Origin: a virus
Lineage: Duplodnaviria; Heunggongvirae; Uroviricota; Caudoviricetes
Reading direction: 5' to 3' (one strand)
Virus record (IMG/VR): IMGVR_UViG_3300044557_000292
Coordinates: 323,388-387,387 of that record
DNA: 64,000 nt
Positions within the stretch are counted from its first letter, which is position 1; every line of letters starts with the position of its first letter. The position numbers were made by a program, and so were the translations under genes. Under the pieces are notes generated by a model. It did not search any database. It was not told the origin of the DNA and saw only the letters and a program-made list of their open reading frames with translations. Positions 1,577 to 57,430 of this stretch are shown here, in pieces.

Positions 1577-1732
1577 ATGGTAGAGACTATCGTCGGTATC
1601 GTGGTGCTCGTGATCTTTGGACTCACCCTTAGCCACAGATCATTGAGCCGACTTGTACTCATTGTAGAATCTTACCAGTTCTACCCTCGCCCTGTCCTCT
1701 CCAACCTGACCATTGCTCATCCTGTACTCTAG
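1577..1732 (+). CDS. possible small ORF (51 aa, hydrophobic N-terminus MVETIVGIVVLVIFGLTL)
   Basis: ATG preceded by GAGGGGGAG Shine-Dalgarno 5 nt upstream; below the 60-aa cutoff of the ORF track; overlaps the 3' end of the CCA gene on the opposite strand. Confidence 0.2.
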   Translation: MVETIVGIVVLVIFGLTLSHRSLSRLVLIVESYQFYPRPVLSNLTIAHPVL

Positions 1733-3115
1733 CATGTGATCATAGAGGACACCCAGGACTGGACCAGGCTTGATCCCAAGGATGCTCATCATCTGGTTAC
1801 CGTTCAACTCGGGGCGGATCTTGTCAAGATCCTCCTTGGCCTTGAGCCTGGAGACGTGATCCTCCAGTTGGTCCATGTATCCAATGATGCGGGCCTCACG
1901 ATTCTTATGGAAGGTGGTCACGTCCGCCCTGGTAAGCACCATGAGACGATCATACAGCGGACCCACCTCCTGGAGGAATCTTCGCACACCAGAATCAGAC
2001 CATAAGACCCCGTTGGGATCAGCGTACCCATGTGCCCTCATGTGAAGGGCTACCAGGTCGCTCACATCCCTAATCACGTCATGAGGATACTTCAACGAGG
2101 ATAGCCTCTTCTTCACCATCCCGGCACCAGCAGCCTCGTGGCCATCAAAGGTCACCTTCTTCCTGCCGTTGAACCTCCTGGTGGTAGTCTTGCCCACGTC
2201 ATGGAGCACTGCGGCCAGTCTGAGGACAAGATCGGGGCCTCCATCAGGGAGTCTGTCCTCCATACTGATAGCCCTGTCAAGAACGGTGAGGGAATGCTCG
2301 AAGTTAGCCTTGTGGAGTCCACGGCTACTTCTATCAGCCCTCCTCAATTCTGACAACTCGGGGAGAACGTGATCCATGAGACCCGAATCAGACATCTCCC
2401 GTAGAGCGTTAGATGGGTTGGCTGACAGCATGATCTTGTTCAACTCGTCAGCAACCCTCTCCCTACTGATCTCATCAAGACGTGGGGTCATACTCCTTAT
2501 AGCGTTCATGGTCTCATCTTCAATCTTGAACCCATACTTGCCAACGAATCTGATCGCCCTGAGCATACGGAGTGGATCTTCACCGAAGGAGATCTTTGGG
2601 TCAAGCGGGGTGCGAATGACCCCACGCCTGAGATCTTCACGGCCTCCGTAGGGGTCAACCAGCACAAGATCAGGAAGTCTGATGGCCATCGCGTTGATGG
2701 TCATGTCACGACGCTTGAGATCATCTTCGAGGCTTGAACCCCATTCCACTCGAGGCTTCCTAGATCCACGATTATAGGAATCGGAACGGTAGGTGGTGAC
2801 CTCAACGTCAGCGTCAATATTCCCGGGGAGATGCCTGCGAGCACCAATGGTCCCATACTTACGGCCAACCTCCCAGTAGCCATCTCCCCACGGCATCAGT
2901 ATGCGGGAAGACTCATCTGGTCTAGCATTAGAGGTCATGTCAAGATCTTTTGGAACACGACCAAGAAGAAGATCGCGAACCGGTCCTCCAACAAGAGCCA
3001 GTTCATACCCCCTTGACTGGTATTCCCTTCCAAGACTGATGGATGCGTTGATGAGGGGGATGGCTGCATCTGGAATCATGATGCCACCCAGACCCTTGAC
3101 TGACAGGTTCTTCAT
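1640..3115 (-). CDS. cca: CCA-adding tRNA nucleotidyltransferase / poly(A) polymerase family with HD domain
   Basis: Pol-beta-like head motifs LVGGPVRDLLLGR and RRDMTINAMA, plus C-terminal HD region (LHDVGK, HMRAHG). Start moved to MKNLSVKG (ATG at 3115), which is preceded by GGAAGGAAGG; the tracked ORF extends to 3250. Confidence 0.8.
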   Translation of the reverse strand: MKNLSVKGLGGIMIPDAAIPLINASISLGREYQSRGYELALVGGPVRDLLLGRVPKDLDMTSNARPDESSRILMPWGDGYWEVGRKYGTIGARRHLPGNIDADVEVTTYRSDSYNRGSRKPRVEWGSSLEDDLKRRDMTINAMAIRLPDLVLVDPYGGREDLRRGVIRTPLDPKISFGEDPLRMLRAIRFVGKYGFKIEDETMNAIRSMTPRLDEISRERVADELNKIMLSANPSNALREMSDSGLMDHVLPELSELRRADRSSRGLHKANFEHSLTVLDRAISMEDRLPDGGPDLVLRLAAVLHDVGKTTTRRFNGRKKVTFDGHEAAGAGMVKKRLSSLKYPHDVIRDVSDLVALHMRAHGYADPNGVLWSDSGVRRFLQEVGPLYDRLMVLTRADVTTFHKNREARIIGYMDQLEDHVSRLKAKEDLDKIRPELNGNQMMSILGIKPGPVLGVLYDHMLEYRMSNGQVGEDRARVELVRFYNEYKSAQ

Positions 3116-3265
3116 AATCAGCCTTCCTTCCATTACTGTAGAAGCATTAACGTTAAAATGACAAATGACAATTGAATCATAATATGAAGACCCATAGGAA
3201 ACGCCGCGAGCCATGATGAGAATGGCCCGCGGCGTAGCAATACTCTCCACCAGCTGGATGAGATC

Positions 3266-3790
3266 CTATCGAGCTGACGGTGAGAGTATCAGCGTGACCG
3301 CAGACCCATTATACGTGGGCGGCGTCGAGATTACAAACACGTCTTCAAGCGAAGACACCATGGTCTTCATGCAGTCATACGCGACCTGCTTGTGATCACG
3401 CTCACGTCCACGAAGCTGCACGGTGAGGCGGACTTTATCACCCCTTGATAGGAATCGTACAGCCTGGTTCTTCTTGACCTCAAGATCATGTGATTCTATA
3501 TTCGGGCGGAGACGGATCTCCTTCAACTGCTGTACGCGAGCACTATGCCGCTGACGCTTGGCCTTCTGCTGCTCTTTAAATCTTTCCTCGGACGCATCAC
3601 CCATCTTCACGATGGGAGGATCATGACGAGCATCCATCTCAATGAGGTCAAATCCCGCATCATCGGCCAATCGAAGCGCGACGTCAGTATCAATCACCCC
3701 AGCGCTCTTACCGTTATCGCCTATGAGCATAACCCTGCTCGCGGTGATGTCCCCATTGATCTTCCTACGATTATCAGCGTTCTTACCCAA
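3266..3790 (-). CDS. infC: translation initiation factor IF-3
   Basis: 174 aa; N-domain ASRVMLIGDNGKSAGVIDTDVALRLADDAGFDLIEMDARHDPPIVKMGD and C-domain LKEIRLRPNIESHDLEVKKNQAVRFLSRGDKVRLTVQLRGRE match the bacterial IF-3 architecture; no rpmI/rplT downstream. Confidence 0.85.
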   Translation of the reverse strand: MGKNADNRRKINGDITASRVMLIGDNGKSAGVIDTDVALRLADDAGFDLIEMDARHDPPIVKMGDASEERFKEQQKAKRQRHSARVQQLKEIRLRPNIESHDLEVKKNQAVRFLSRGDKVRLTVQLRGRERDHKQVAYDCMKTMVSSLEDVFVISTPPTYNGSAVTLILSPSAR

Positions 3791-16815: not shown

Positions 16816-17205
16816 TCAGTCACGGAGTTCTCTTCCATAACCATCACGATGCCATTCAGATCCAGGCGTGCTCGTCAAGATGAAGACGCCCTCGACTATA
16901 CCCCACAGGTTGACCGCTGGGGCTAGTGCGCCGAATGAGAGCAGCGATATGAGCAGTTGGGTCAACGCTCTACTATTCCTCCCCAGATAGAAGTTATGGA
17001 CTCCAAGCGCGCCAAGGAAGATAGCCAGTACTCCCGCAGCAGCTTTAGACTTCAATGGAGGCATATCGTTCCCATCCTGTTGGCCATCAGGACCAATAAT
17101 GGGCTCAGAGTTCAGACCATAACCACTCCGCCCAATTCCATTGATCTTGTCAGCACTAGACGGATCGTCATAATGGACATTCTCATAACCAGTTTCATCA
17201 CCCAT
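16816..17205 (-). CDS. TM2 domain-containing membrane protein
   Basis: KSKAAAGVLAIFLGALGVHNFYLGRNSRALTQLLISLL matches the TM2 domain signature (GxxGxHxFYLG). Confidence 0.6.
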   Translation of the reverse strand: MGDETGYENVHYDDPSSADKINGIGRSGYGLNSEPIIGPDGQQDGNDMPPLKSKAAAGVLAIFLGALGVHNFYLGRNSRALTQLLISLLSFGALAPAVNLWGIVEGVFILTSTPGSEWHRDGYGRELRD

Positions 17206-18489: not shown

Positions 18490-19749
18490 TCAGTACTGCT
18501 CGATGGAAACAGAATCGCTCTTGTGGTCAATTCTAGCAATGCTGAGGAATCCGCCCTTGTCCACCCTCGTCTCCAGATTGAAGATCTTACTGAACTCCCT
18601 TGGGTCATGACGATGTTCGTTACGATGCCCGTGGAATTGTATAACATCGGTATTCGCATCTTCAACGATCTTGTCAATATCAATCTTGTAGTCATGAACC
18701 ATTGGGCTCCCCCCGGTCCCGTACCACCAGGTCGACCCGCTCGTGAAGCCAATGTCATATGACCTGTAACCATCCAGCTCATGGTGCTCAAGCATGGCTG
18801 GATGTACTCCCCCATGAGACGAGAAGTAGTGCTTACCATCATAATAGAATGGGAAGTAGTCAACAAGATGAGTATCAATCAACCGCCCGTACCTCCGGAG
18901 GTTCTCTACTGAACCGTGAACATACTTAGAATCCCTTAGAATCTCCTCAATTGTCTTCCTCGTGGACAAAGAGTACGGCTCCCATACTTTAGATCCATAG
19001 TACTTAAAGTAACTGTCATGATTGCCCTTGATGAATACCCTGTTCGTATCATTGATATGATCAATGATCCAATCAAACATTGGCCCGGCTTCATCTTCAG
19101 GCCCACGATCCATAAGGTCACCACAGAACACGGTGAACTCACGAGGATTAATATTGTCTGCGCCAGATCTTACGAACGTGGAGTAGCAGCCCTGAATATC
19201 CCCAATCACCCTGACGTTCGAGTACTGGGAGAGCTCTGTCTCTTGAATCTTCCCTTGACCGCAGAACTCATCTACCGTCATTGCTGACTCGCTCCTATTG
19301 ACCTGAAATCTCCTCGTATCAGTCCAAGTCTTCTCCACCTCAGCGTCAGTCCAAGGTCTGTTCGCCCTGTGGGAACGCTCAATAACCTCTTCCAGTGATT
19401 GTTCTCCCTGAACGTTGACGAACACGACCTCGTAATTGTACTCATGTGCGAGATTCAGGATAGGATTAATCTTCTTGCGCTTTGAGTTCGTCCAATCAAA
19501 TATGATAGCATCCCCGGAACGCATCCTGCGCTCTATAATCTTGCAGGCGATGTCTAATGCTGTCCGTATGTTCTCGTTCGTAGAGTCACACCCGTAGGCG
19601 ATCTTACCATTATGATAATACGGCCTGTTCGGATCGATGATTCTCAATATGGAGTCAACGGATACGGTCTGGTCCTCCAGATGCTGTCTACGGATCAGGG
19701 TGGTCTTTCCTGACCCGTGCGCTCCCCGTATAATAAATATTTTACTCAT
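18490..19749 (-). CDS. polynucleotide kinase-phosphatase-like protein (P-loop kinase plus calcineurin-like metallophosphoesterase)
   Basis: N-terminal Walker A GAHGSGKTT; C-terminal metallophosphatase motifs GDIQGCY, GDLMDRGPE, GNHD, HGG and FHGHRNEH. Confidence 0.7.
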   Translation of the reverse strand: MSKIFIIRGAHGSGKTTLIRRQHLEDQTVSVDSILRIIDPNRPYYHNGKIAYGCDSTNENIRTALDIACKIIERRMRSGDAIIFDWTNSKRKKINPILNLAHEYNYEVVFVNVQGEQSLEEVIERSHRANRPWTDAEVEKTWTDTRRFQVNRSESAMTVDEFCGQGKIQETELSQYSNVRVIGDIQGCYSTFVRSGADNINPREFTVFCGDLMDRGPEDEAGPMFDWIIDHINDTNRVFIKGNHDSYFKYYGSKVWEPYSLSTRKTIEEILRDSKYVHGSVENLRRYGRLIDTHLVDYFPFYYDGKHYFSSHGGVHPAMLEHHELDGYRSYDIGFTSGSTWWYGTGGSPMVHDYKIDIDKIVEDANTDVIQFHGHRNEHRHDPREFSKIFNLETRVDKGGFLSIARIDHKSDSVSIEQY

Positions 19750-19770
19750 AAGTCAATAGTAACAATAAGG

Positions 19771-19860
19771 GGTGAACACCGCAACGCGGGGAATACTCTT
19801 GAATGATCTCCCGTCACCAAGTTTGAATACAGGTTCAGACCCGCCTACACGGGGTTCACC
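19771..19860. CRISPR. solitary degenerate CRISPR-like unit (2 diverged repeats, 1 spacer-length insert)
   Basis: ggtgaacaccgcaacgcggggaatac, then a 34-nt insert, then ggttcagacccgcctacacggggttcacc; sits exactly between the topA stop (19861) and the PNK start (19749). Confidence 0.6.
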
Positions 19861-20949
19861 CTAACGCTTCCTTGAAACCCTTCCAGATGCGGGCTTCCTC
19901 CTCGCAGGATGATCTTTCTGATAATCATCCCATATTTCCTTAGCCCGATCAGGAGACAGCGCCCTGGGATCTTCCCCATCTGGAAGCGATATGAATACAG
20001 CACGACCACGCGGAGCATTCTTATGACCCAGCCACGCCCCCCTCTTCCCTATTCCAGTGAAGAACCCGTCACCGAGCTGTCGTGGTAGCTTCACCTCTGA
20101 GAACATCTGCTCAGCATCTTGAAGGGTCACCGTGTCCTCAGTGAGACCACCGTCCTTGGGAAGCGTCATGTTCACGGGCTTAGCGCTCTTCACTGGTGAA
20201 CCATCCTTATGGATCCTCACGGCCTGCACGTAAGAGCCATACTTACCATTCCTAGCCGTCACCTGCCATCCAGCATACGGGCCGTCCTTCAGTATCCCCA
20301 GGACACGATTCACGGGCGATTTTGCCTCATCTAGTAGCTTCCTGCACGCGCCCGGCGTGAGGGCGTCTTCATCTGTTAGAACGGAATCATCCAGCTTCAC
20401 GCTCTTCACGTACCCAGAATCATTCTTCTCCCCCGAGGGGTCTTCAAGCCACGCGCCAGACCTGTTCACCCTGACCACGTACCCGCCGTTGAGATGAACC
20501 TCCGACAGCGTGTTGATCTCATTCCAGTCAATATTCCTAGCGAGACCATTCACCCTGCCATCAATGCCGTCAGGAGCCTTCCACACGCCATCAAGGAAGT
20601 CATCCCTTGATAGCGATCCGTCACCGATCTTATCAAGATCTTCCTCCATGGATGCGGTGAACCCGTAGTCAACGTACCCCGGAATCTTATCCTCAAGAAT
20701 CTGGGCGACCTTCATGCCCGTCCATGTCGGCGCCATCGCCCTTCCCTTCTTCTGCACGTACCCGCGCTTCTGATTCACGGTCACGAGGTTAGCATACGTT
20801 GACGGTCTACCAATACCAAGTTCTTCCAACTTGGCCACAAGTTGCGGCTCTGTGAACCTTGCCGGAGGTGTAGTCGTGTGCATGGTCGAGGATGCTGTTG
20901 ACAACTCACATTCCTCCCCAACCTTGAACTCATGCGTATTCCTTGCCAT
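19861..20949 (-). CDS. topA: DNA topoisomerase I, C-terminal portion (downstream of the in-frame TAA)
   Basis: TPPARFTEPQLVAKLEELGIGRPSTYANLVTVNQKRGYV matches the conserved topo IA domain III/IV region. Confidence 0.75.
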   Translation of the reverse strand: MARNTHEFKVGEECELSTASSTMHTTTPPARFTEPQLVAKLEELGIGRPSTYANLVTVNQKRGYVQKKGRAMAPTWTGMKVAQILEDKIPGYVDYGFTASMEEDLDKIGDGSLSRDDFLDGVWKAPDGIDGRVNGLARNIDWNEINTLSEVHLNGGYVVRVNRSGAWLEDPSGEKNDSGYVKSVKLDDSVLTDEDALTPGACRKLLDEAKSPVNRVLGILKDGPYAGWQVTARNGKYGSYVQAVRIHKDGSPVKSAKPVNMTLPKDGGLTEDTVTLQDAEQMFSEVKLPRQLGDGFFTGIGKRGAWLGHKNAPRGRAVFISLPDGEDPRALSPDRAKEIWDDYQKDHPARRKPASGRVSRKR

Positions 20950-20967
20950 AATGACCTCCCTATTCTT

Positions 20968-22389
20968 TTATTCTTCACCGTCATCATACACGGACAGGAA
21001 TCCCCTGTCATCTATCCTCGTACTACTCGTCGTGAACACGGCCTTACCGTCACTAGATGTAATCGTGATCTTTCGCGTGATCCCCCTCGCAGGGTTCATC
21101 TGGCTAGCCACGGTCCTCCTGTACACGAGATCATAGACCTCACCAGCCTTAGCGTCATATGAGGAAGATGCCGTCAGCCCCCTGATCTTCGCTGGATCAT
21201 AGAATATTCCCGTTGATTCCTCTACAACAGGACGGATGCACTCGTGACCCTCCTGAGCATTCTTAGACTTCGACTTGTATATGATCGGCTTTGATGGCAT
21301 CTGTCCACCGTACTGTTTACGGATAATACTCCTCGCCGCCCTCACGGCCTCATCTGCCATCGCTGGGCTGTCCGTCCTTGAGTATGTTTGATACGTGTGC
21401 TCGAAGAGCTGCTGGGCTATACTCATAGCCCTGCTGGCCGTGAGCCCAAGCATGGATCCAACATTCTGCTGGTATGATGACGTGGTGTACGGGGTTGGAG
21501 GATTCCTCTTATAGGGCTTCTCCGTAATGTCAGTGATACTGTACTTTTTTGACTTCAGGTCTTTTAGGATCTTCTTCACATTATCATCACTGAGGGTGAG
21601 CTTATCTGAGGATCCATCCTTCAGCATGCCGTCAGGACCGTAATCAGATCCCGATGCTATTCTACTCCCATCGTACTCCACGAGGCTAGCCGTCAATTCG
21701 GCTTCCGTCCCCCTGTTAAAAACAGCCTCAATGGATCCATATGACGCCTTCACGAAGCCTAGGCGATCCTTCTCCCTGTTCACGACGAGGCGCAGGGTGG
21801 GTGACTGCGCCCTGCCTCCAGACGTCCCAGACCCTACCGTCTTCCAAAGGTATGGGGAGATACTGAACCCGAAGAGACGATCATAGACCTGCCGGGCCTC
21901 TGCCGACTCGGCCTTCCGCACGTCTATACTAGCATATGACTCCAGACCGGCAAGCACTGCCCGCTTCGTGATCTCATGCCAACTCGCCCTGCGGACATCC
22001 ATGCCAGACTTCTTGAGATCTGATTCTAGCGACTGCACGACCTCGTATCCAATGAGCTCTCCCGCCTCGTCCGGATCAGTACTCACATAGAAATGCTTCC
22101 ACCTGCCAGACCTGACCTCAGATCTGATCTCACCCCACTGCTTACGATTCTGAGGGTCATGATCTAGGAGACGCTCATAACGCCCACTCCGCACGTCGAT
22201 CGAGTAATCGCCGTACCGTTCACGCTCTTGACTAGTGCTCTTCTTCGGGTCCTTGAGCTCGAACATGAAACCCTTCGTGGCCATGATCTTCCACCCGCTG
22301 CCAAGGAACCCAGTGATCTCCCTGGCCTTGGTAGGCGACTCAACGATCATGAGGCCGCCGTCACGCTGAATGTCTTCTATGATTGCCAT
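20968..22389 (-). CDS. topA: DNA topoisomerase I, N-terminal portion (TOPRIM plus domain II), ends at an in-frame TAA
   Basis: LMIVESPTKAREITGFLG TOPRIM motif; the stop (TAA at 20968-20970) is in the same frame as the downstream ORF and separated from its ATG by 18 nt. Confidence 0.75.
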   Translation of the reverse strand: MAIIEDIQRDGGLMIVESPTKAREITGFLGSGWKIMATKGFMFELKDPKKSTSQERERYGDYSIDVRSGRYERLLDHDPQNRKQWGEIRSEVRSGRWKHFYVSTDPDEAGELIGYEVVQSLESDLKKSGMDVRRASWHEITKRAVLAGLESYASIDVRKAESAEARQVYDRLFGFSISPYLWKTVGSGTSGGRAQSPTLRLVVNREKDRLGFVKASYGSIEAVFNRGTEAELTASLVEYDGSRIASGSDYGPDGMLKDGSSDKLTLSDDNVKKILKDLKSKKYSITDITEKPYKRNPPTPYTTSSYQQNVGSMLGLTASRAMSIAQQLFEHTYQTYSRTDSPAMADEAVRAARSIIRKQYGGQMPSKPIIYKSKSKNAQEGHECIRPVVEESTGIFYDPAKIRGLTASSSYDAKAGEVYDLVYRRTVASQMNPARGITRKITITSSDGKAVFTTSSTRIDDRGFLSVYDDGEE

Positions 22390-32701: not shown

Positions 32702-32838
32702 TCATATTCCTTTCCGAGAAATTGAGCCCATTGACTATTATGCATAGCACGAACAGGACTAATCGTCACGTTTCAATGCATACGAGATAATATAATACCA
32801 TTATTCCAATCAATATGAAATCAATCAATTCGGTATCG

Positions 32839-33774
32839 TCAAATCTTATCCAGGTTATCCAGGAATATTTGATCATCAAACGGGTCATGATCACTGTTTT
32901 CAAGTTCGGTAACGATCACGTCAATCACGTACTTGTCCTTGGAGGCCTTTCCACCACCGTAGAAGCTTGTATTCTTTATGAAGTTATTGTTATCATCATG
33001 CCATAAGACGCACGTGTCAGTCCCACCGTCTTGCAGTGGCTTCACGGTAGGCCAACAGTTGGGAGCATCGAAGTCGTGCTTCGTGATCACGTTCGACCTC
33101 ACGTCAAAACGAACGATACCAGGGAATAAGAGCCTCTTCTCATTCAAGGCCAGCTTCTCCTTGATGTACGACTTCCTATCAGCGTTGGATCTTCTCCGAT
33201 CCTGCTTCTCGTGTGTCTTCCTGAACATATTCTTGTACCTGGTTAAGATCTTCGACTCTAATCTGTACTGAAGCTTGACACCCCTGAGATCGTCTTCCAC
33301 CGCCCTGATCTTACCGGACAATTCCACATGCTTGTACGCCGATCGGGGAATCGTTCTATTCTCCGTCTTCAATGCTGACAGGCCTGACTTCATCTGACTG
33401 ATCTTATCCTCAAGTGAAGACACGATGCACTTCTGCGCGTCATAATCGTCGAACGCCTTCCTCTCTGTTGGCGTATAGTCAGTTGAGGACAGATTCCACG
33501 AGGAGGGTTCTAGGGCGATGAGACCGAATTCATGCTCTATGGCAGAACCCCATACCTTCTCACCGTATGCTCTCAGCCAGGCGCTCTTCTGCCGTGACGT
33601 GATGTCATTATCACCGGTATTCGACCCCTTGTAATGCTCCCTTGGAATGGTGAACCTCACCCTTAGTACCTTGGGATCATCAGAGTGAGATGAACGCACC
33701 TTGAATCCAGCATCAGTATCGTCTTCGATCACATTACCAGTATCCTGAAATCCATCGGACATGATTAGTACCAC
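32839..33774 (-). CDS. hypothetical protein
   Basis: 311-aa ORF. Confidence 0.45.
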   Translation of the reverse strand: MVLIMSDGFQDTGNVIEDDTDAGFKVRSSHSDDPKVLRVRFTIPREHYKGSNTGDNDITSRQKSAWLRAYGEKVWGSAIEHEFGLIALEPSSWNLSSTDYTPTERKAFDDYDAQKCIVSSLEDKISQMKSGLSALKTENRTIPRSAYKHVELSGKIRAVEDDLRGVKLQYRLESKILTRYKNMFRKTHEKQDRRRSNADRKSYIKEKLALNEKRLLFPGIVRFDVRSNVITKHDFDAPNCWPTVKPLQDGGTDTCVLWHDDNNNFIKNTSFYGGGKASKDKYVIDVIVTELENSDHDPFDDQIFLDNLDKI

Positions 33775-35203: not shown

Positions 35204-35205
35204 GA

Positions 35206-35823: not shown

Positions 35824-35920
35824 TTACAGAACTCCATCCCAATCGTCATCACGAGCAGCGGATGACTAAGACGTTATAACCAAATAGTCATTATAACTTT
35901 ATAATCATGTGAGAATCAGG

Positions 35921-36658: not shown

Positions 36659-36786
36659 AACCCGTCAAACATCGTCAGATTATTAAGATATTGAACGATA
36701 TGGTTAGAACCAATCGATCTTAATATAATCCAATAATTGGGGCCTTATGGGAAGACCCCCATACATGACCCCTGGTCAACGTGAGT

Positions 36787-38097: not shown

Positions 38098-38165
38098 GAA
38101 TACATTATAACAACAGATGACCTAACAATGCAATTCGCAGGACGAGGAGATGATTCTATCATACT

Positions 38166-38801: not shown

Positions 38802-38840
38802 TCTTCTTAGTATGGAATGGTATCGTCAGTAGAATCACAC

Positions 38841-39891: not shown

Positions 39892-40860
39892 TCAGTCCTC
39901 GTAATCATCCTCATCTTCGTAATCATCCTCGTAGTCATCATCATAATTCAAGGAGATGTCCTGCGTTGGATTCCTCGTGACGTTCAGAACCTCGTACTTG
40001 CAGACACGGAGCTTCTGGTACGCGGAGTCTACGGGGACGGAAACCACGTCGCCCGCGCTGAACGCGACGGTGAGGACGTAACCGTTCCCCCAGCTGTTAG
40101 CGTAATCCCACGTGCCAATGTGAAGACCAGGTGCGCATCCATTATTCGGATCATCGGTCACCTTGCTCTTTGGCATGGCGATAATCGACCCGATCTTATT
40201 CGGGATGTACCCATTGACCTCACGGAACTCCTTCTCGCCCTTCTCCTTCACAAGACCAAGACCTGACCTCTTTGAGAAGGGAACGCCGTCCATATCCTGC
40301 ACGCCCTTGTACCCAACGACACGACCATCATCAAGGAGCGTGAACCCATTCGTGCTATCATCCTCGAAGTTAGACTTCAACCATGAGAACAACTGGTCAC
40401 GAACATACTTCGTGTTATTCGAGTAGAGATCGTTCACGAATCTGAGAAGAGCTGTCCAGTTGCGATCAGAACCATCCGGGTCATCGGCCTCCGTGTGGAG
40501 GATGCGGAGGATCTCACGCTCGAGTACCTGGTCGATGGGCTCCCCGTCCATGAAGATCCTCTCGCCGCACCTCGTGAGCCTGTCATTGAGACCAAGAGAT
40601 TCAAGATGACCGGAGATCTTCTCCTCAACGATGGATGCGGCAGCCGTCGCGTTCAAGATGAGGTCGGCAAGATCCTCGGGGCTGCTCCCGTCCTCTATGG
40701 CTGATACGATCCCATCGAATACTGCCGTATCGCTAGATCCCCTCTGGATGCTGAACGTCTTCAGGGTGCCATCATCAAGTCTAATGATGCCATGAAGCTC
40801 GTCGTAATGCCCTTCCAGAACGTTATTGTTACCGCTAAGACTGGTGACTGTAGCCATCAT
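39892..40860 (-). CDS. hypothetical protein with acidic DDYEDDYEDEDDYED tail
   Basis: 322-aa ORF. Confidence 0.45.
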   Translation of the reverse strand: MMATVTSLSGNNNVLEGHYDELHGIIRLDDGTLKTFSIQRGSSDTAVFDGIVSAIEDGSSPEDLADLILNATAAASIVEEKISGHLESLGLNDRLTRCGERIFMDGEPIDQVLEREILRILHTEADDPDGSDRNWTALLRFVNDLYSNNTKYVRDQLFSWLKSNFEDDSTNGFTLLDDGRVVGYKGVQDMDGVPFSKRSGLGLVKEKGEKEFREVNGYIPNKIGSIIAMPKSKVTDDPNNGCAPGLHIGTWDYANSWGNGYVLTVAFSAGDVVSVPVDSAYQKLRVCKYEVLNVTRNPTQDISLNYDDDYEDDYEDEDDYED

Positions 40861-41001
40861 GACTCCTTACCGTTTCCATTAACATCTAATTGATTCCTGT
40901 TACATGTTCTATTATATCCAGTATGACTGGTTAAAGCAATTCAAGATCAATCACGTTACCAGTCATACGGTACCATATCATCCACAAGACGTGATGCGCA
41001 G

Positions 41002-43842
41002 TCACTCTGCCTTGTACCCGAGCTTGTCGACCTCATCCCACGCCTTGTCCTCATACTGCTTGAACCATGACAGGGCCGCGGTCAGAATCGAAGACTCTCC
41101 TCCCTTCTTGACAGCAATCCTCGGAGAGTCATCCCTCCATGAGTAGCTGAAAATCCTAAGGAAGAATACGAGATCAGGGTTAGTACGATCAATGTCGTCA
41201 ATGATCTTAGTCAACTCCCAGTGATAAAGAGCAGTCCTGACAGCACCCCTAATCAACTTGTCCTCGGTATTCTTCCATATCATATCCGCGATTCCGAGAA
41301 TATCGTCAGGCGCACTGGCAATGTTGAAGATCTTCCGCATGAGACTAGCATAATCATCAGACTTGTCCTCGTAGTCGCGATCATCCTCAATTGAGATTAC
41401 CTCATCGATCACGCCCAACGAAGAACCGTACGAGAAGATCCTAGGATCAGACAACGCGTCCACGATAGTATCGCGCCAAGTGTCAGGATGCCCGCAGATC
41501 ACGTCATCCCTGAATTTGGCGGATGATTCAGCGTATGGCACTGATTGAGCTGTCTTCATGGACTTGAAGCGCCTGATTCTACCAGTCACGCTGTCACTGA
41601 TGAAGATCTTGTCATACCCGGTCAAGGGCTCAAGATCAGCAGCCTTGATCTTAGCGATATCAGAGATGACTACGATATCGTGACCGTTGAACACGTCTGG
41701 GTTCTCGACCATTCTCCTGAAGATTCCAATCATCGAGTTGAAGGAATTACTGTAAGAGAAGAAGACGATGCTGCCGCCACGCACGAGATCTTTGAACGTG
41801 ACCTCTTCCACCGCCTTGAGATCATTCCTCCTCAACAGGTTCATGGCCCGCTCCTCCACTCCGAGGCCACCGTTCCCCTCAACAAGAGCAGGGACTCGCG
41901 TCTTCACAACAGCAGGAGTGGTCTTCTTCACCACCGACTTCTTCACGATGAGATCGTCAGCATCAACGACGCCCATCCACTTGACGCCAGCATCAATGGC
42001 CGCATCCCTGAACCCGTCGAAATGACCGTCTGGATATGATCCATTAGCAATGCAGCAGTAAATCTGGCACGCATTGTCATTATCGTCATAATTCTCGCGG
42101 ATCCAATTCCTCAGTCTACCGAACGATTTAGACCCGTCAAAGCCCCCAGTGACGACCAAGGCCTTGACTGCCTTAGCGCGATAATTCCTCGGGATATGAT
42201 GGAACGCGGACTTCATCCAGTCGATCGGAACCTTCAACACGCCCGATGTCAGGTATGATCCACCCTCCTTCCTTACCACAGATGACACCTTCGATAGGTT
42301 AAAAGTAAGGGCCTTGGCACGAAGACGCGCCTCGTAGTCCATATCATCATTCAATACGGAGTTCAGGCTCGATATGGATCCATCAGCGAACTCATACTTG
42401 ACGTAATTGTGATCGTCGTCACTCTTCTCGTTATGGGCTAGTGGAACCCCGTATCCAATCGTAGATGCTATCGACGGCCGCTTCTCGGAAAGATAATACG
42501 GGGTCACGGTGAGATTAAGAACCGTATCAAATGACTCCACGATCTTATCATGATCATGCACGGCGACCTCGTCAGGCCAGATCTCGCGCAGCCTATCAAG
42601 AATAGAGGAGGCGACCTTCTCGTCATCAAGATCAACGATATTTTCAATAATGATTGACCTATCGGAAACGGGAACATTCCCCCATATTCTTGATATTGAC
42701 CTCCCGTCGAGAGGATGACTCTTATTCGAGTTGAGCGGAAGGTCAAGCCCACTATTGACTGCCGCGATAAGACTCTTGAACCTGTCGTTACGCTTGATCT
42801 CATCACGAGACGGAGGGAAGTCGACCACGCCAGGCTGGATCTCCAGGAGGAATCGGGTAGACCCAACAGAATTAAGATTATACTTCCATCCCATGAGCGA
42901 TATTGACACGTAGCGTTCGGCGAAAGATCCATCAGACCAGTACCAGTTAGTATTAATACTAGCCGAGAGCCAACTGGAGAAAGCACTGCCAATGTTCTCA
43001 CTGCCACCATAGACATTACCGCGGTTAACATAAAGCTTACCGTTGATCGGCTTCCCATCGCTGTCCATAGCGACTGGAATGTCTATGAGATGCGTCCACG
43101 CCTTATCAAAGTCCGCGGAAGCAGGTTTACCGTCAATACTCAGCGGAATATCGGGGGTAGCGTATCTCGCGTACTGGCTAATGACGGTATTGAACTTCTC
43201 AACGTCCTCAGGGCGAACTGGAATCTCGACCCGCGTCCCATTAGGCTCGTCCGTGCTGCCATCGAAGATCGTCTCGGCCTCATTCACGTGCTCACCACGA
43301 TTCAGGGTGAGCACGATCTTACGCCCATCCCTCACGGTGGACACCACGCACGTTGTCGTATAGGCGAGCGGGGCCTTAGCGCCAAGACCCTTGCTTCCAG
43401 TAGCGCCCATGTCGTTGATCTTGGTGGAATTACCATAATCGGCGAAGTTCGCGTAGATCTGGCTCCTCGTCATGCCCACGCCGTGATCCTCAACAATGAA
43501 CGTCGGGCTGAATGAGGACGGCGGGTGAATGTCAACGTTGGGGGCATCAACCCCCTCATTCCTCGCGAGGATGGTAGCATCAATAGCGTTAGACACGGTC
43601 TCCCTGATCGATGCTGATATTGGATCTGAGTAGAGGTCAGTGAGCTGTTGAATGATCATCTGCAGGACATCACCGCTGATCGTCATGGTGTGCTTGCTCA
43701 CTGACTCCCCGATGAAGCTCACCGTCTTGTGACCAGTGACGGCCTCATTGCTCTTAGAGAGCGTGGTAAGCTGGCTAGCTTCCTGTTCCATAAGTTGACG
43801 ACTCCCATCTGTTCGTTTCCGGATAGCTCTATCATAACACAA
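41002..43842 (-). CDS. GHKL-superfamily ATPase, Hsp90-like N-terminal domain (946 aa)
   Basis: N-box IRETVSNAIDAT (ExxxNxxDA), G1 IVEDHGVGMT, G2 GATGSKGLGAKA; the flanking sequence QQLTDLYSDPISASIRETVSNAIDA parallels Hsp90 [27 protein letters not shown]. Confidence 0.6.
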   Translation of the reverse strand: MCYDRAIRKRTDGSRQLMEQEASQLTTLSKSNEAVTGHKTVSFIGESVSKHTMTISGDVLQMIIQQLTDLYSDPISASIRETVSNAIDATILARNEGVDAPNVDIHPPSSFSPTFIVEDHGVGMTRSQIYANFADYGNSTKINDMGATGSKGLGAKAPLAYTTTCVVSTVRDGRKIVLTLNRGEHVNEAETIFDGSTDEPNGTRVEIPVRPEDVEKFNTVISQYARYATPDIPLSIDGKPASADFDKAWTHLIDIPVAMDSDGKPINGKLYVNRGNVYGGSENIGSAFSSWLSASINTNWYWSDGSFAERYVSISLMGWKYNLNSVGSTRFLLEIQPGVVDFPPSRDEIKRNDRFKSLIAAVNSGLDLPLNSNKSHPLDGRSISRIWGNVPVSDRSIIIENIVDLDDEKVASSILDRLREIWPDEVAVHDHDKIVESFDTVLNLTVTPYYLSEKRPSIASTIGYGVPLAHNEKSDDDHNYVKYEFADGSISSLNSVLNDDMDYEARLRAKALTFNLSKVSSVVRKEGGSYLTSGVLKVPIDWMKSAFHHIPRNYRAKAVKALVVTGGFDGSKSFGRLRNWIRENYDDNDNACQIYCCIANGSYPDGHFDGFRDAAIDAGVKWMGVVDADDLIVKKSVVKKTTPAVVKTRVPALVEGNGGLGVEERAMNLLRRNDLKAVEEVTFKDLVRGGSIVFFSYSNSFNSMIGIFRRMVENPDVFNGHDIVVISDIAKIKAADLEPLTGYDKIFISDSVTGRIRRFKSMKTAQSVPYAESSAKFRDDVICGHPDTWRDTIVDALSDPRIFSYGSSLGVIDEVISIEDDRDYEDKSDDYASLMRKIFNIASAPDDILGIADMIWKNTEDKLIRGAVRTALYHWELTKIIDDIDRTNPDLVFFLRIFSYSWRDDSPRIAVKKGGESSILTAALSWFKQYEDKAWDEVDKLGYKAE

Positions 43843-53487: not shown

Positions 53488-53687
53488 CGGGTTCAAACCC
53501 TCGAAGATCGTGGGTGTCGCAGACCTCCGACGCCACCGTCACAGACCATCACTGGTTACCCCCTATGGCTCGACGCACCCACGGCTCGACGTATTCACAT
53601 GCCACTCGACATGCCACTCATGCCATCACCATCACTGCCCTGCGCCACCATGCCATGCGCTGCAGATCCACGCTGCTTTTGGTATCT

Positions 53688-53758
53688 CCCCCGCAGACCC
53701 TATAATCCTAGGATATGCTTCCCCGTGTTACACGGCCAGCGTTGAAATCTAGCCCTTC
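53688..53758. repeat. promoter/operator-like ~70-bp repeat, copy A
   Basis: ccccgcagaccctataatcctaggatatgcttccccgtgttacacggccagcgttgaaatctag; contains TATAAT, the CCTAGG palindrome and the GTGTWACAC palindrome. Confidence 0.6.
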
Positions 53759-53886
53759 CTGAAAAACACAATCTCCAGTGGTGAGGGCAGCATATTCCTC
53801 ACCACCAGCGACCACCGTCACCCCGGCGCAGGTCATCAACGACATCGCCAGTCACACGACGTATGCCTGGCGCCTAGTCCCCTCGG

Positions 53887-54348
53887 CTACCCATCATATC
53901 TGTTTCCCACCAGAAGATCGGCTGCCATAAGTGGGGAATCGGTGATCTCCAGATTATCCCCGTCACGATCGATCCTGAACTGGTCATATGCGCTTACACC
54001 GTCATCGGTCATCCTGAGCAGCGCGAGCCTAGTCGAAGCTGGGTCGCTAGTATCATGTTCGCGCACAAGCGCGTCGAAATTGATGAGACTTTCGGTATGG
54101 CCGGCGCTGATGGAACCGCCGTTAGCCCACAGGTAAAGAGTGTGACGGGAGACCCCAAGAGCCTTGGCCAGTTGACGCATCGTGAGTCCAGAGCGCTTCT
54201 GGACGTCATGGAGAAGATCGGCGAGAGTACTTATGGCAGATCCCCCGGGGACTGGCGCATCCACGAGACCCACGTACTCCACGTCCTCTCCCGACCGCAC
54301 GCAGTAGTGAGGGTGCCAGCCCTCGCCGTGCTTGCTCTCTCCGTCCAT
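53887..54348 (-). CDS. HTH (XRE-like) DNA-binding protein
   Basis: LTMRQLAKALGVSRHTLYLWANGG helix-turn-helix; start is ~65 nt downstream (on the minus strand) of repeat copy B. Confidence 0.55.
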   Translation of the reverse strand: MDGESKHGEGWHPHYCVRSGEDVEYVGLVDAPVPGGSAISTLADLLHDVQKRSGLTMRQLAKALGVSRHTLYLWANGGSISAGHTESLINFDALVREHDTSDPASTRLALLRMTDDGVSAYDQFRIDRDGDNLEITDSPLMAADLLVGNRYDG

Positions 54349-54410
54349 GATGATCCTCCACTCCCTCGGTCCATCCGATAACGCGGCCTGCGCTCGTGGA
54401 CCAGGGGATC

Positions 54411-54483
54411 TCCCCAGCAGACCCTGTAATTCCTAGGATATGCTTCCCCGTGTTACACGGCCAGCGTTGAAATCTAGCTCTTC
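54411..54483. repeat. promoter/operator-like repeat, copy B
   Basis: tccccagcagaccctgtaattcctaggatatgcttccccgtgttacacggccagcgttgaaatctagctcttcc. Confidence 0.6.
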
Positions 54484-54534
54484 CCCAAAAAGAGCATTAG
54501 AAAGGGCTAAAACCCTTACTGTTATGATCCACAG

Positions 54535-56055
54535 TTACTTCAACCGCGCGTTCTGGAGTCCATAAGCGCGGTTATGATTGGTGCCACGAGCACTGGGCTC
54601 GTCCATCTCGTCAAGCAGCTCACCGACATAAGTCATGTCAACAGCGTCCTCGTGGAACGCCTTCCTCTCATAGACCAGTCTGCTCATGTCAGCATGATCT
54701 AGAACATAATCTAGAGCGGACTCATCTTCAAGATCACGTGGACGAGCATCGTCATCCCCGTGAGTGATCCTGCTCTCAAGTACGTGACGGAGACGCTTCA
54801 CGCGGAGATACCTATCCGACTTCACCTTGGCCATGTACCCGTCACGGCTATAGATCACGACGCCCTCACGATCTGACCCATGAGCACGATTGATAGCATC
54901 AGCTAACTCCTCGCGATTGCTAACGACCTCAGATCTTCTAATGTCCTCATTCCTCCACCCAATTCCATTCATGATCTCATCGTCAGCATCACGATCAATG
55001 CTGAACACTGAATCGTTCCTGACGCAGTGAATGAAGAAGCATTCCGAGTGGTCGTATGGAATGATGTGCCTATCAGAATTATGGTCAATGATCTCGCACG
55101 CGATCGTCACGTCATGATCATAGATAACGTCATGCACCCTCTTGATGAGGGCGGGATCGTTACCGAGCTGGTTCCTGAACGCCTCATCGACCAGAGCAGA
55201 GTAGTCCGTCTGTCCACTCTTCGAGTAGAATCTAAGAGTCCCATCACGACGCGCGCCAATGAGTCCAAGGAACCCGTTCTGCTTCAACTCCACGGTTGCT
55301 GGATACCTGACTCTGTCAAGAACCTTCTCAAGGGTGGTCTCATCATTCTCCCCAATATTGAAGAACTTGTCGAATCCACGCATGACGACTCTTCCAGAAT
55401 GATCTAGGAATAGGCCGCGCGCCTTTGAGGAGTACTCATCCCAATCATGATTGTAGAACGCCCTGCGGGTGAAGTTGCAAGCGTAGACATCATCCTCGCC
55501 CTCGACCTTCTTCACCCTGACATTGCGATTAGCCGCCATCTTAACGAGGAGGTTGCTGTCATTCTTGAGATCATTAACCGTGAACGGTATGGTATCCTCA
55601 AGACGGGAGTACTGTCTGCGAACATACGACTCGGGAACACGATCGTCCTCTGGGCGGGTCTTATTCCTCGCTACGAGATCTTCCAGCGGAACGTCAGTCA
55701 AGTCTTCAATCCTGACGTCAGCATGAGCTCTGGTCGCCAGGTCAACGAGGCCTTTAAGATCGGGTATGGCGATGTTCTGAGCGTCAAAGATCACACTCAC
55801 TCCAGCCTTGAGCAGTCTTGACGCCAGGTCACGAGCGGAATGGACTATGACGTCTTCACCGTTCTTTCCAACACCCTCGTTCCTGGTCTTTAAGAGCTGC
55901 CATCCCTGACGAGATCCTCCCAGCATGGTCCTCATCGAGTCGTATGATACGATGACCGAGCCAGTCTTCCTGGACAACTCGCGGGCTCGCGTGGTCTTAC
56001 CGCTCCCAGGAAGACCCCTCATGATCGTGAGCGTGGTCTTTTCAAACTTCTTCAT
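54535..56055 (-). CDS. P-loop polynucleotide-kinase-like domain fused to a nucleotidyltransferase (RNA/DNA ligase-like) domain
   Basis: N-terminal IMRGLPGSGKTT...SYDSMR (Pnk-like); C-terminal VELKQNGFLGLIG resembles ligase motif I (KxDG with D replaced by N) plus downstream conserved blocks. Confidence 0.5.
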   Translation of the reverse strand: MKKFEKTTLTIMRGLPGSGKTTRARELSRKTGSVIVSYDSMRTMLGGSRQGWQLLKTRNEGVGKNGEDVIVHSARDLASRLLKAGVSVIFDAQNIAIPDLKGLVDLATRAHADVRIEDLTDVPLEDLVARNKTRPEDDRVPESYVRRQYSRLEDTIPFTVNDLKNDSNLLVKMAANRNVRVKKVEGEDDVYACNFTRRAFYNHDWDEYSSKARGLFLDHSGRVVMRGFDKFFNIGENDETTLEKVLDRVRYPATVELKQNGFLGLIGARRDGTLRFYSKSGQTDYSALVDEAFRNQLGNDPALIKRVHDVIYDHDVTIACEIIDHNSDRHIIPYDHSECFFIHCVRNDSVFSIDRDADDEIMNGIGWRNEDIRRSEVVSNREELADAINRAHGSDREGVVIYSRDGYMAKVKSDRYLRVKRLRHVLESRITHGDDDARPRDLEDESALDYVLDHADMSRLVYERKAFHEDAVDMTYVGELLDEMDEPSARGTNHNRAYGLQNARLK

Positions 56056-56134: not shown

Positions 56135-56893
56135 TCACTTGGCGTTGTTCTCATCTTGGTTAAGAATCCTGTCAAGCTCCGCATTCAGACCCCCATACCA
56201 CTCCATCTTGCTCTTATTCCTTGAATCTTCCCTAATCGCCTCACCCTCCTCGGATTCGATGGAGGACTTGATCTTGTCAAGCTCCCTCTCCTTGTACTCA
56301 TCGACCTTACCAGCGTCAACATTGGTTGAGATAGAGCCGTCATCAGAGCGATTCACGTAATGATCGGGAAGAGTGATTCCGTCATACAGCTCTTGCAGTC
56401 GCCTAAGGCCGGGTTCGGGGTTCTTATAATCGACGTTAATGTATTCAAGATCGCTGATCATTGAATCGATGGCATCATCAAGATGCCAGGCTAGTTCAGA
56501 CTTATAATCAGAATACTCCTCGGCTGCATTCCAGTCCACGATCTCCTGGTACTGCATTCTGAGCAGCGGTAGTCTTGCAAGGTAATCGTGCGCAAGGTCA
56601 AGATCCCTCTGCGTCTTAGCCTTCTCAGCAAGAATGTCTTCACGCTCAGAGTTGATATAGGATTCAATCCAATCGTACTCATCACGGCTCTTGAGCTCGT
56701 TCAATCTAAGCTGCTTGGTCTTTATGGAATCCCGCCATTTATTACTAGTGAAGTAGCCTTCTGGTACTTGTCCGTATGGATCGTCTTCATCTCTGATACT
56801 GTAGAACACCCAGAAACTCCTCATGACCTTGTCCGCAAGCCTGCGCGCGTCGTCCCCACCCTTCACGATTCCATAGTTCAATCCAGTAGTCAT
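56135..56893 (-). CDS. hypothetical acidic protein
   Basis: 252-aa ORF. Confidence 0.45.
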   Translation of the reverse strand: MTTGLNYGIVKGGDDARRLADKVMRSFWVFYSIRDEDDPYGQVPEGYFTSNKWRDSIKTKQLRLNELKSRDEYDWIESYINSEREDILAEKAKTQRDLDLAHDYLARLPLLRMQYQEIVDWNAAEEYSDYKSELAWHLDDAIDSMISDLEYINVDYKNPEPGLRRLQELYDGITLPDHYVNRSDDGSISTNVDAGKVDEYKERELDKIKSSIESEEGEAIREDSRNKSKMEWYGGLNAELDRILNQDENNAK

Positions 56894-57017
56894 AGATCAA
56901 TCCTTTCAGCACTAAGAACAAAACCACAGGTCTATGATTCTATGATAACACAAAAAGCGCTATCAGCTCGCCAGACCATAAGATTATGCCAAATCGCATC
57001 TTTTAAGACGATTCCTG

Positions 57018-57090
57018 GGAGGGGCTAGATTTCAACGTTGGCCGTGTAACACGAGGAAGCATATCCTAGGATTATAGGGTCTGCGGGGAA
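57018..57090. repeat. promoter/operator-like repeat, copy C (inverted relative to A and B)
   Basis: ggaggggctagatttcaacgttggccgtgtaacacgaggaagcatatcctaggattatagggtctgcgggga is the reverse complement of copy A with 3 mismatches. Confidence 0.6.
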
Positions 57091-57378
57091 GACGTCATAG
57101 TGCCGTCGGTGGTCTGCAGCACGCGGCTATACCACGAGCGCAAGTGGAATGCAGCGCTCGACAACGCCAGGCCATAGTGATGGGTGGTGCTCAGAGACGA
57201 TGGTGAAGCAAGCCACAGAGGCCCCGGTGATGATGGCGATACCCAGTGGTGATCTATGATGGCTACGCCAAGTGTCTGTGGTCTGCGGGGAAGCTAATGG
57301 TCTGTGCCTACGGCATCGCCGGGCCATATCCTCACCGTTGGAGACCATGATTTTTAGAAAGGGCGTAATAGCAACGCT

Positions 57379-57430
57379 TCTAGTGTAACACAAGGAAGCA
57401 TATCCTAGGAATTACAGGGTCTGCGGGGAT
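57379..57430. repeat. promoter/operator-like repeat, copy D (partial, inverted; B-like variant)
   Basis: ttctagtgtaacacaaggaagcatatcctaggaattacagggtctgcgggga. Confidence 0.55.

Follow-up and report, generated by a model that had tools for sequence, protein, structure and literature searches.

Healing and sealing of broken RNA is a recognised phage counter-defence, and the bare presence of a kinase, a phosphoesterase and a ligase in a phage is in itself unsurprising. In phage T4 it involves two proteins, Pnkp and Rnl1, the latter of the Rnl1 superfamily (PF09511), which are thought to counter host anticodon nucleases. Clostridium thermocellum Pnkp (CthPnkp) comprises, from the N-terminus, a Pnk-type kinase, a lambda-phosphatase-type binuclear metallophosphoesterase and a ligase domain, and fungal Trl1 is ordered ligase (LIG), kinase (KIN), cyclic phosphodiesterase (CPD). 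In Capnocytophaga gingivalis the healing and sealing enzymes are separate polypeptides, encoded by three genes in one cassette and assembled in one complex that includes the methyltransferase Hen1 (PMC4411300). Here we describe two open reading frames (ORFs) in a window of 64,000 nucleotides, positions 323,388 to 387,387 of the IMG/VR virus record IMGVR_UViG_3300044557_000292 (Caudoviricetes). ORF1 (18490..19749, minus strand, 419 amino acids) encodes a Pnkp-like kinase-phosphoesterase without a ligase domain, and ORF2 (54535..56055, minus strand, 506 amino acids) a Pnk-type kinase joined to an ATP-dependent RNA ligase of the Rnl1 superfamily. An initial annotation, made from the sequence alone, had placed both genes at these positions and read them as a kinase with a calcineurin-type phosphoesterase and a kinase with a ligase, and these assignments hold by family scores and motifs. 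With a rough probability of 0.55, we propose that both proteins act in one RNA heal-and-seal pathway.

The proposal is based on the complementarity of the domains, which together comprise a 5'-kinase, a 2',3'-phosphoesterase and a ligase, so that the pair supplies the three activities of the known heal-and-seal systems, as had been claimed. Both proteins match the same family, phrog_8238 of PHROGs, a kinase-phosphatase-ligase profile of 737 positions, with ORF1 covering positions 1-381 (2e-63) and ORF2 positions 417-686 (7e-60). In the joint pathway the lambda-phosphatase-type metallophosphoesterase of ORF1 would open or remove the 2',3'-cyclic phosphate that transesterifying ribonucleases leave behind, a Pnk-type kinase, most probably that of ORF2 rather than that of ORF1, would phosphorylate the 5'-OH, and the Trl1-like ligase of ORF2, a member of the Rnl1 superfamily, would seal the ends via a Lys258-AMP intermediate. 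During infection, the pathway would probably serve to mend tRNA, or RNA of other kinds, that host ribotoxins have cut. We infer that both proteins meet at the same RNA ends, and likewise the identity of the working kinase and the biological target. This also applies to the action against host anticodon nucleases that the initial annotation had put forward.

The kinase domain of ORF1 (residues 1-165; 19255..19749, minus strand) matches Pfam AAA_33 (1.9e-12) and contains the P-loop G9-AHGSGKT-16, with K15 and T16, as well as the conserved D32 and D85. Its predicted model places the kinase part closest to the kinase of CthPnkp (CthPnk), with a TM score of 0.73 in Foldseek. The binuclear metallophosphoesterase domain (residues 175-419; 18493..19227, minus strand) shows the motifs GDIQG (183-187), GDLMDRG (210-216), GNHD (242-245), SHGG (with H312) and HGHRNEH (373-379), and D184, D211, R215, N243, H244, H312 and H375 are all present. 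Besides phrog_8238, ORF1 is matched by phrog_246 and phrog_20114, and by TIGR04075, the NCBIfam model of bacterial Pnkp (1e-11 over residues 6-282; 43.8 bits against a cutoff of 750, while ORF2 scores 26.3 bits). A profile of ORF1 and four relatives found lambda phosphatase 1G5B (1.3e-5), PP5, calcineurin and the CthPnkp kinase 4GP7 in the PDB. The ORF1 start (19750-19800, minus strand) lacks a Shine-Dalgarno sequence and has a TACTAT box ending 6 nt ahead of the ATG; a leaderless mRNA is possible.

Some of these matches could be read differently. As phrog_246 ('NinI-like serine-threonine phosphatase') matches the whole protein (3e-16), as weak matches to ApaH, PrpE, Zeta_toxin and chloramphenicol phosphotransferase were found, and as the acceptor-binding Arg of polynucleotide kinases is absent, ORF1 might represent instead a protein phosphatase similar to NinI and lambda phosphatase, or a hydrolase of nucleotides (Ap4A, cyclic nucleotides), with a small-molecule or zeta-toxin-like kinase, which would leave the RNA role to ORF2 alone. 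We consider this improbable. By far the best family is phrog_8238, the kinase fold is closest to CthPnk, and P-loop and general-base Asp are invariant in the alignment of the ORF1 clade. An exhaustive profile search with this clade gave 468 clusters at E 1e-30 or better; among the best 150 of them, the ca. 20 nearest are standalone proteins of 420-460 amino acids, while about two thirds are 650-900 amino acids long, with room for a ligase domain, and nearly all of these longer proteins bear a KxNG or KxDG ligase motif.

Two catalytic positions of ORF1 deviate from the characterised enzymes. In the kinase, Leu35 stands three residues after the general-base Asp (D+3), where CthPnk has Arg41, which is essential in that kinase, and T4 Pnk the conserved equivalent Arg38 (PMC3902929). 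The column holds Arg in 144 of 153 relatives and Leu, Met or Ile in the three nearest relatives of ORF1. An Arg at D+4 of ORF1 might compensate for Leu35; in another protein of the clade (P0124) both arginines are missing and the lid region is reduced. Faster evolution of the kinase than of the phosphoesterase was also considered, but the ratio of 0.71-0.76, against a family median of 0.89, lies inside the 10-90% range of 0.69-1.08 and was not used.

In the phosphoesterase, the ligand set of CthPnkp comprises Asp187, His189, Asp233, Arg237, Asn263, His264, His323 and His376; seven of these eight residues are present in ORF1, and the exception is the metal ligand His189 (the His of GDLHG in lambda phosphatase), for which ORF1 has Gln186. 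In the 153 family members, the column contains no residue other than His (104) or Gln (49), with Gln in 30 of the 52 standalone proteins versus 19 of the 101 fused ones, and invariant in the ORF1 clade. In CthPnkp, H189A and H189D lose the monoesterase and keep the diesterase activity, and H189D converts the cyclic phosphate to a 2'-phosphate, by which repair moves from T4 Rnl1 to the yeast ligase (PMC1920235). Gln substitution did not restore the monoesterase (PMC3675462), and H189Q had less cyclic phosphodiesterase activity than H189A (PMC2190708). By analogy, the catalytic repertoire of ORF1 probably differs from that of the His-type enzymes, in a direction that these variants do not fix.

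The ORF2 kinase domain (residues 1-160; 55576..56055, minus strand) has the P-loop G14-LPGSGKT-21 and the full catalytic set, K20, T21, D39, R42, D91 and the lid residues R130/R134, all family-invariant. K20, D39, R42 and R130/R134 match Lys21, Asp38, Arg41 and the lid arginines of CthPnk (PMC3902929). AAA_33 was matched at 9e-20, the best PDB kinase is Pnkp1 (4XRP) by sequence and CthPnk by fold, and Foldseek matched CthPnk, Pnkp1 and T4 Pnk to this domain. Because this set is complete, whereas the ORF1 kinase lacks the essential Arg, we favour the ORF2 kinase as the working one; an Arg-less kinase in ORF1 and an Arg-bearing one in ORF2 would also explain why two kinases are kept.

The ligase domain of ORF2 (residues 170-490; 54586..55548, minus strand) is matched by RNA_lig_T4_1 (PF09511) with 7e-29 and 101.7 bits, against a cutoff of 28.3. 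Its motifs are K258-Q-N260-G261 (I), S278-K279 (Ia), E321 (III), H343 (IIIa), E397-G398 (IV) and K410/K412 (V), all invariant in a family alignment of 20 sequences. Motifs III-V, the absence of which the initial annotation had named as speaking against a ligase, are thus all present. Its description of KQNG as an atypical motif I has to be dropped, since KxNG is the canonical motif I of the Trl1-LIG, or Rnl6, clade (PMC6379707), is invariant in the ORF2 family and is found in 87 of the 101 fused relatives from phages and bacteria; in phmmer alignments, KQNG pairs with the KANG/KENG of fungal Trl1 ligases.

Further comparisons point to the same clade. When the ORF2 ligase was searched with phmmer against all PDB sequences, only fungal Trl1 chains were found (9QW7, 6N0V, 6N67, 9R3W and 6N0T, at ~1e-9), and T4 Rnl1 was not reached at E 0.01. 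TIGR02308, the equivalog model of T4 RnlA, scores 35.2 bits against a cutoff of 242. An AlphaFold (AF2) model of ORF2, built on the family alignment, has a mean predicted local distance difference test (pLDDT) score of 88.2 and a predicted TM score (pTM) of 0.82. In Foldseek, the first seven places go to Trl1-LIG entries (E 3e-15 to 1e-12), followed by T4 Rnl1 (1.7e-10) and archaeal Rnl3. With regard to the distinctive C-terminal domain of the Trl1-LIG clade, the predicted model aligns over 343-395 columns with Trl1-LIG chains of 372-395 residues and over 265-304 columns with T4 Rnl1, at root-mean-square deviations of 5-9 Å. Sequence and predicted fold place the ORF2 ligase nearer to the Trl1-LIG clade than to T4 Rnl1. 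The likeness to T4 Pnk/Rnl1 suggested by the initial annotation can be kept for the heal-and-seal activities but not for the enzymes, as the ligase is nearer to Trl1-LIG and the phosphatase is not of the DxDxT type.

In Chaetomium Trl1-LIG, Asn150, His227, Arg334 and Arg337 hold a sulfate that was taken as a mimic of the 2'-phosphate; they were described as unique to the clade and enforce specificity for the 2'-phosphate (PMC6379707, PMC11404444, PMC12440814). By alignment their counterparts in ORF2 are N260, H330, K420 and R423, the first Arg being replaced by Lys. All four are invariant in the ORF2 family, and among the 101 fused relatives N is kept in 87, H in 97, K in 97 and R in 92. These counterparts constitute a resemblance and not a demonstration. 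The Trl1-type arginines are neither necessary nor proven sufficient for use of a 2'-phosphate, because the plant tRNA ligase requires a 2'-phosphate and yet lacks both (PMC12440814).

Gln186 of ORF1 and the putative pocket of ORF2 allow a special case of the joint pathway, similar to the yeast route. Here ORF1 would be only a 2',3'-cyclic phosphodiesterase that leaves a 3'-OH,2'-phosphate end, ORF2 would read this 2'-phosphate via N260, H330, K420 and R423, and the 2'-phosphate at the junction would be removed by Tpt1/KptA or kept against re-cleavage. The phosphodiesterase-only phenotype of CthPnkp H189D with its 2'-phosphate product sealed by the yeast ligase instead of T4 Rnl1 (PMC1920235), the surmise that an oxygen ligand at the His189 position favours diesterase chemistry (PMC2190708), the failure of Gln to restore the CthPnkp monoesterase (PMC3675462), the invariance of Gln186 in the ORF1 clade and its frequency in the family, the conservation of the pocket counterparts and the nearness of ORF2 to Trl1-LIG by fold and sequence are all consistent with it. 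We nevertheless regard this route as unlikely, since H189Q is the weaker cyclic phosphodiesterase compared with H189A (PMC2190708), the first pocket Arg is Lys, and the plant tRNA ligase shows that a 2'-phosphate can be required without either arginine. Moreover, the N/H/K/R set is equally conserved beside His-type phosphoesterases (67 His-type versus 17 Gln-type), without any correlation; a search for a correlation of Gln-type phosphoesterases with KxNG ligases likewise gave nothing convincing. Family scans of the window covered ORFs of at least 120 amino acids judged to be coding, with overlapping antisense ORFs left out, and among these no match to Tpt1/KptA was found, nor to 2H, RtcB, Rnl2, Hen1 or any methyltransferase.

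The relatives of the two proteins indicate different origins. Fused kinase-phosphatase-ligase proteins of 740-790 amino acids occur in Herelleviridae infecting Staphylococcus and Lactobacillus, where those annotated have 778-790 amino acids, and such a fusion is also found in the chromosome of Bifidobacterium castoris. The exact ORF1 sequence occurs on one contig of the 0.2-1 Mb class, and JGI contigs of 491 kb and of 350 kb carry homologues of 49-56% identity within a conserved block that also includes a TM2-domain gene. ORF1-clade relatives were not found in species genomes; the clade appears, as far as seen here, only on metagenomic contigs of 350-491 kb that are apparently related to this phage. 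The closest relatives of ORF2 are actinobacterial kinase-ligases (Bifidobacterium, Collinsella; 39-54% identical), with 48-53% identity to those of Bifidobacterium versus ~28-33% to the fused phage forms. Of two metagenome scans for ORF2-type genes on the 491-kb and 350-kb relatives of ORF1, the first gave no match and the second only gut loci of the Bifidobacterium type.

Directly upstream of the ORF2-family gene and on the same strand, 75 of 80 metagenomic loci encode a metallophosphoesterase of 230-245 amino acids with the pattern SDLHxxH...GNHE...HGHTH; the 80 loci include many near-identical strains, and contig edges account for four of the five exceptions. In species genomes this gene stands beside the kinase-ligase in all ten assessable cases. 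One protein (P0079, 752 amino acids) is a phosphoesterase-kinase-ligase fusion with the phosphoesterase at the N-terminus, and in Bifidobacterium colobi the phosphoesterase is followed by a ligase with no detectable kinase match. The window contains no homologue of this partner metallophosphoesterase (best tblastn E 0.49), and the phosphoesterase of ORF1 has no significant BLAST similarity to it, the two belonging to different subfamilies. By sequence, ORF2 resembles an actinobacterial kinase-ligase stripped of its usual partner. As the kinase domains of ORF1 and ORF2 are only 26% identical, and as ORF2 derives from an actinobacterial metallophosphoesterase and kinase-ligase operon and ORF1 from a clade of standalone kinase-phosphatases, sequence comparison identifies the pair as an assembly of two lineages and not as the fission of one trifunctional gene. 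The notion of a split system, put forward in the initial annotation, is given up on these grounds.

Whether the two proteins act together has to be judged from their distribution as well. With the usual partner gene of ORF2 absent, ORF1 is the only RNA-repair-type phosphoesterase found in the window. The assembly ERZ16268255, with a relative of ~80% identity, contains both a kinase-ligase (P0001) and a kinase-phosphoesterase (P0122) in intact form. The CCA-adding enzyme and the IF3 homologue encoded in the window fit a protection of translation, in line with the translation-protecting genes described for jumbo phages, in which RNA repair genes are common (PMC7824862).

Several observations weigh against a joint pathway. 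ORF1 and ORF2 are separated by 34.8 kb and are not co-transcribed, and the 10-kb surroundings of the ORF1 homologues on the 491-kb and 350-kb contigs yielded no kinase-ligase. In ERZ16268255 the two genes are on separate short scaffolds. Pfam Metallophos does not reach E 0.1 on ORF1, so that the phosphoesterase assignment rests on PHROGs, NCBIfam, PDB profiles and motifs; the predicted model of ORF1 is of low confidence (pLDDT 66) and was used for the kinase fold only. The repertoire of this phosphoesterase is uncertain, Gln at the His189 equivalent being poorly active in CthPnkp (PMC2190708, PMC3675462). Finally, four contigs from other samples (L011-L014), with ~99% DNA identity, carry a change from CAG to TAG at codon 148 of ORF2, between kinase and ligase. 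The gene is called there as 147 + 343 amino acids (e.g. L011 4911-6458), and the downstream ATG has no Shine-Dalgarno sequence. As one such sample carries an ORF1 that is 100% identical to that of the window (L002 versus L013), ORF2 may be dispensable.

Some of these points would also suit an independent action of the two proteins, with ORF1 as an end-healing enzyme native to the phage, or as a phosphoesterase for another substrate, and ORF2 as a recently captured actinobacterial cassette. ORF2 would then be served by some other 3'-healing activity, e.g. the HD domain of the CCA-adding enzyme (1640..3250), or be in the course of being lost. The much higher identity of ORF2 to Bifidobacterium kinase-ligases than to phage fused forms, its position in a repeat-rich and slightly more GC-rich block with an HTH regulator of its own, the nonsense codon in the four near-identical relatives, and the lack of a ligase within 10 kb of ORF1 homologues on large contigs all speak for such a capture or separation. 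In the E. coli CCA enzyme, the HD domain acts as a 2',3'-cyclic phosphodiesterase and as a phosphatase, and the window nucleotidyltransferase bears an HD domain as well. On the other hand, intact homologues of both genes are kept in the ~80% relative, the ORF2 family nearly always keeps a phosphoesterase partner, so that a partnerless copy is incomplete unless ORF1 substitutes, and the kinase defect of ORF1 is most simply compensated by ORF2. We consider independent action rather unlikely and continue to prefer the joint heal-and-seal pathway.

ORF2 lies in a module with a conspicuous repeat structure. The inverted repeats reported to bracket it in the initial annotation were confirmed: the inner arms (54431-54485 and 57017-57071; 55 nt, 93% complementary) enclose ORF2 and an ORF of 252 amino acids, and the outer arms (53374-53488 and 57898-58012) are 115 nt long with 87%. 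A 28-nt repeat core is present in four copies, versus none expected by chance, and nowhere else in the window; the repeat copies at the module are 60-80 nt each. Copy 1 (53685..53786) and copy 2 (54413..54491), which forms the left inner arm, are on the plus strand, copy 3 (57010..57092), which forms the right inner arm, and copy 4 (57330..57428) on the minus strand, and each contains a TATAAT-like box and, behind it, the palindrome CCGTGTTACACGG. Directly downstream of ORF2, between two repeat copies, is a gene for an Xre-like helix-turn-helix (HTH) regulator (53887..54348, minus strand), which is a candidate regulator of the module. The acidic 252-residue ORF (56135..56893, minus strand) directly upstream of ORF2 also adjoins the ligase in the relative L012; no family match was obtained for it, and no profile identifies it as a phosphoesterase.

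From both sides the repeats converge on the HTH gene, ORF2 and the 252-residue ORF (53374-58012). At copy 3, a promoter-like site (57098-57071) is directed at the 252-residue ORF and ORF2. Two of the copies face the antisense strand of these two genes, HTH and ORF2, and would drive antisense transcription. From their sequence, the repeats look like repeated promoter-operator elements rather than transposon ends. A mobile cassette bounded by the inverted repeats was considered but is not supported, as no transposase or integrase lies inside and close relatives share the gene order around ORF2. A recoding of TAG as Gln was rejected: TAG terminates 13 of 46 long minus-strand ORFs, a same-frame run at 61204-62208 is made up of separate small genes, beginning with a complete thioredoxin, and the topoisomerase gene is split by TAA and a ribosome-binding site.

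The exact ORF1 copy on the contig of the 0.2-1 Mb class and the 49-56% identical homologues on the 491-kb and 350-kb contigs lead us to assign the window to a very large phage. Its genes are nearly all on the minus strand, and the GC content is ~50%. The clearest phage hallmark is a pair of adjoining homologues of rIIA (946 amino acids) and rIIB (322 amino acids) at 39892..43842 (minus strand). The relatives of ORF2 lie on the chromosomes of Bifidobacterium, Collinsella and a small number of further Actinomycetota, which suggests an actinobacterial host but does not prove it. No near DNA match to the window was found among 50,697 phage records, the window has no tRNA genes or Rfam matches, and PADLOC defence-system profiles gave weak matches only.

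Translation-related genes carried by the phage are those for the IF3 homologue (3266..3790, minus strand) and, next in the same frame, the tRNA nucleotidyltransferase or CCA-adding enzyme (1640..3250, minus strand), with a PolyA_pol head, RNA-binding and HD domains. The latter is a possible third tRNA-repair function of the phage. The window also codes for NrdE, NrdI, a deoxynucleoside monophosphate kinase, a clamp-loader subunit and a glucosyltransferase-like protein. Membrane or stress-type genes, which are unusual in a phage, encode SPFH/flotillin, TelA, VKOR and two LemA proteins (31298-39773, minus strand; 44216-44809, plus strand; 60330-60878, minus strand), TM2 (16816-17205) and DUF805 (50998-51831) proteins. 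Topoisomerase I is encoded by two in-frame ORFs (19861-22389, minus strand), one of 473 amino acids with Toprim and the N-terminal part of Topoisom_bac, the other of 362 amino acids with the C-terminal part and Toprim_C_rpt. They are parted by a TAA, a GGGAGG ribosome-binding site and an ATG, and the same split is seen in the relatives L001, L002 and L115, so it looks like a genuine two-subunit split and not a frameshift.

Architectures of this kind are already catalogued by annotation pipelines, as 'RNA ligase' in PHROGs and 'tRNA splicing ligase' at JGI, and the 2016 survey of RNA repair architectures by Burroughs and Aravind may list them already. A biochemical study of the ORF1 or the ORF2 family was not found in the literature searched. 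What deserves attention is the arrangement, with three activities distributed over two unlinked genes, each with a kinase, one of which misses an essential residue, which looks like natural subfunctionalisation. In addition, there is a large uncharacterised family of prokaryotic and phage ligases, sampled here as 101 fused proteins and 13 kinase-ligases, that is closest to the fungal tRNA-splicing ligase and conserves counterparts of the residues behind the 2'-phosphate requirement of the fungal enzyme. The family of ORF1, in turn, shows a natural His/Gln dimorphism at the metal ligand whose mutation flips Clostridium Pnkp between T4-type and yeast-type routes.

It is a doubtful but attractive idea that ORF2 and its many bacterial and phage relatives are prokaryotic members of Trl1-LIG (Rnl6) which keep the 2'-phosphate pocket and, together with Gln-type metallophosphoesterases such as ORF1 in the part of pure cyclic phosphodiesterases, form a yeast-type route that leaves a 2'-phosphate at the junction. 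If true, bacteria and phages would gain a route to RNA with an internal 2'-phosphate, the missing substrate of the widespread bacterial Tpt1/KptA, which is a long-standing question (PMC6097658). The junction 2'-phosphate could then also shield the repaired site from re-cleavage, akin to Hen1 methylation. If the Gln switch and the Trl1-like pocket are functionally linked, the question of the Tpt1/KptA substrate becomes directly testable.

Compared with the described systems, ORF1 shares with CthPnkp the order of kinase and metallophosphoesterase but lacks the C-terminal ligase domain and has Gln for His189 and Leu for Arg41; the CthPnkp kinase set (P-loop Lys, Ser/Thr, Asp38, Arg41) is instead complete in ORF2. 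In contrast to bacterial Pnkp-Hen1, no Hen1 is seen among the scanned window ORFs, and the ligase is of the Rnl1/Trl1 and not of the Pnkp ligase type. As in Capnocytophaga gingivalis, healing and sealing enzymes would be on separate polypeptides; the phage genes, however, are some 35 kb apart and not in one cassette, no Hen1 was found beside them, the ligase has its own kinase and it belongs to another ligase family. T4 Pnkp and Rnl1 are likewise a two-protein phage system with a ligase of the PF09511 superfamily, but have a single kinase where the window pair has two, and a phosphatase of the DxDxT (HAD) acylphosphatase type where that of ORF1 is calcineurin/lambda-phosphatase-like.

With fungal Trl1, ORF2 shares the fusion of kinase and ligase, the KxNG motif, and the ARGLF and RG[FY]DKFFN motifs of the N-subdomain; it has aligned counterparts of His227, Arg334 and Arg337, and the matches span most of the Trl1-LIG chain. 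The order, however, is KIN-LIG instead of LIG-KIN-CPD, the scanned window ORFs contain neither a 2H cyclic phosphodiesterase nor Tpt1, 3' healing would fall to a metallophosphoesterase on another protein, and the first Arg is Lys. The Herelleviridae proteins of phrog_8238 (e.g. gp174 of Staphylococcus phage Quidividi and orf88 of Lactobacillus phage LpeD) contain the same three domain families in the order kinase-phosphatase-ligase, on one polypeptide with a single kinase and at an identity of ~28%, whereas in the window the domains are divided and ORF2 adds a second kinase; for these trifunctional proteins no published characterisation was found in the literature searched, and their function is taken from annotation only. 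The actinobacterial metallophosphoesterase and kinase-ligase operon shares the architecture and all catalytic residues of ORF2, but its upstream SDLHxxH-type metallophosphoesterase is not in the window, and that of ORF1 comes from another subfamily. The pair of ORF1 and ORF2 would work like the known heal-and-seal systems, T4 Pnkp/Rnl1, Pnkp-Hen1, Pnkp1-Rnl-Hen1 and Trl1, yet it is a member of no characterised one.

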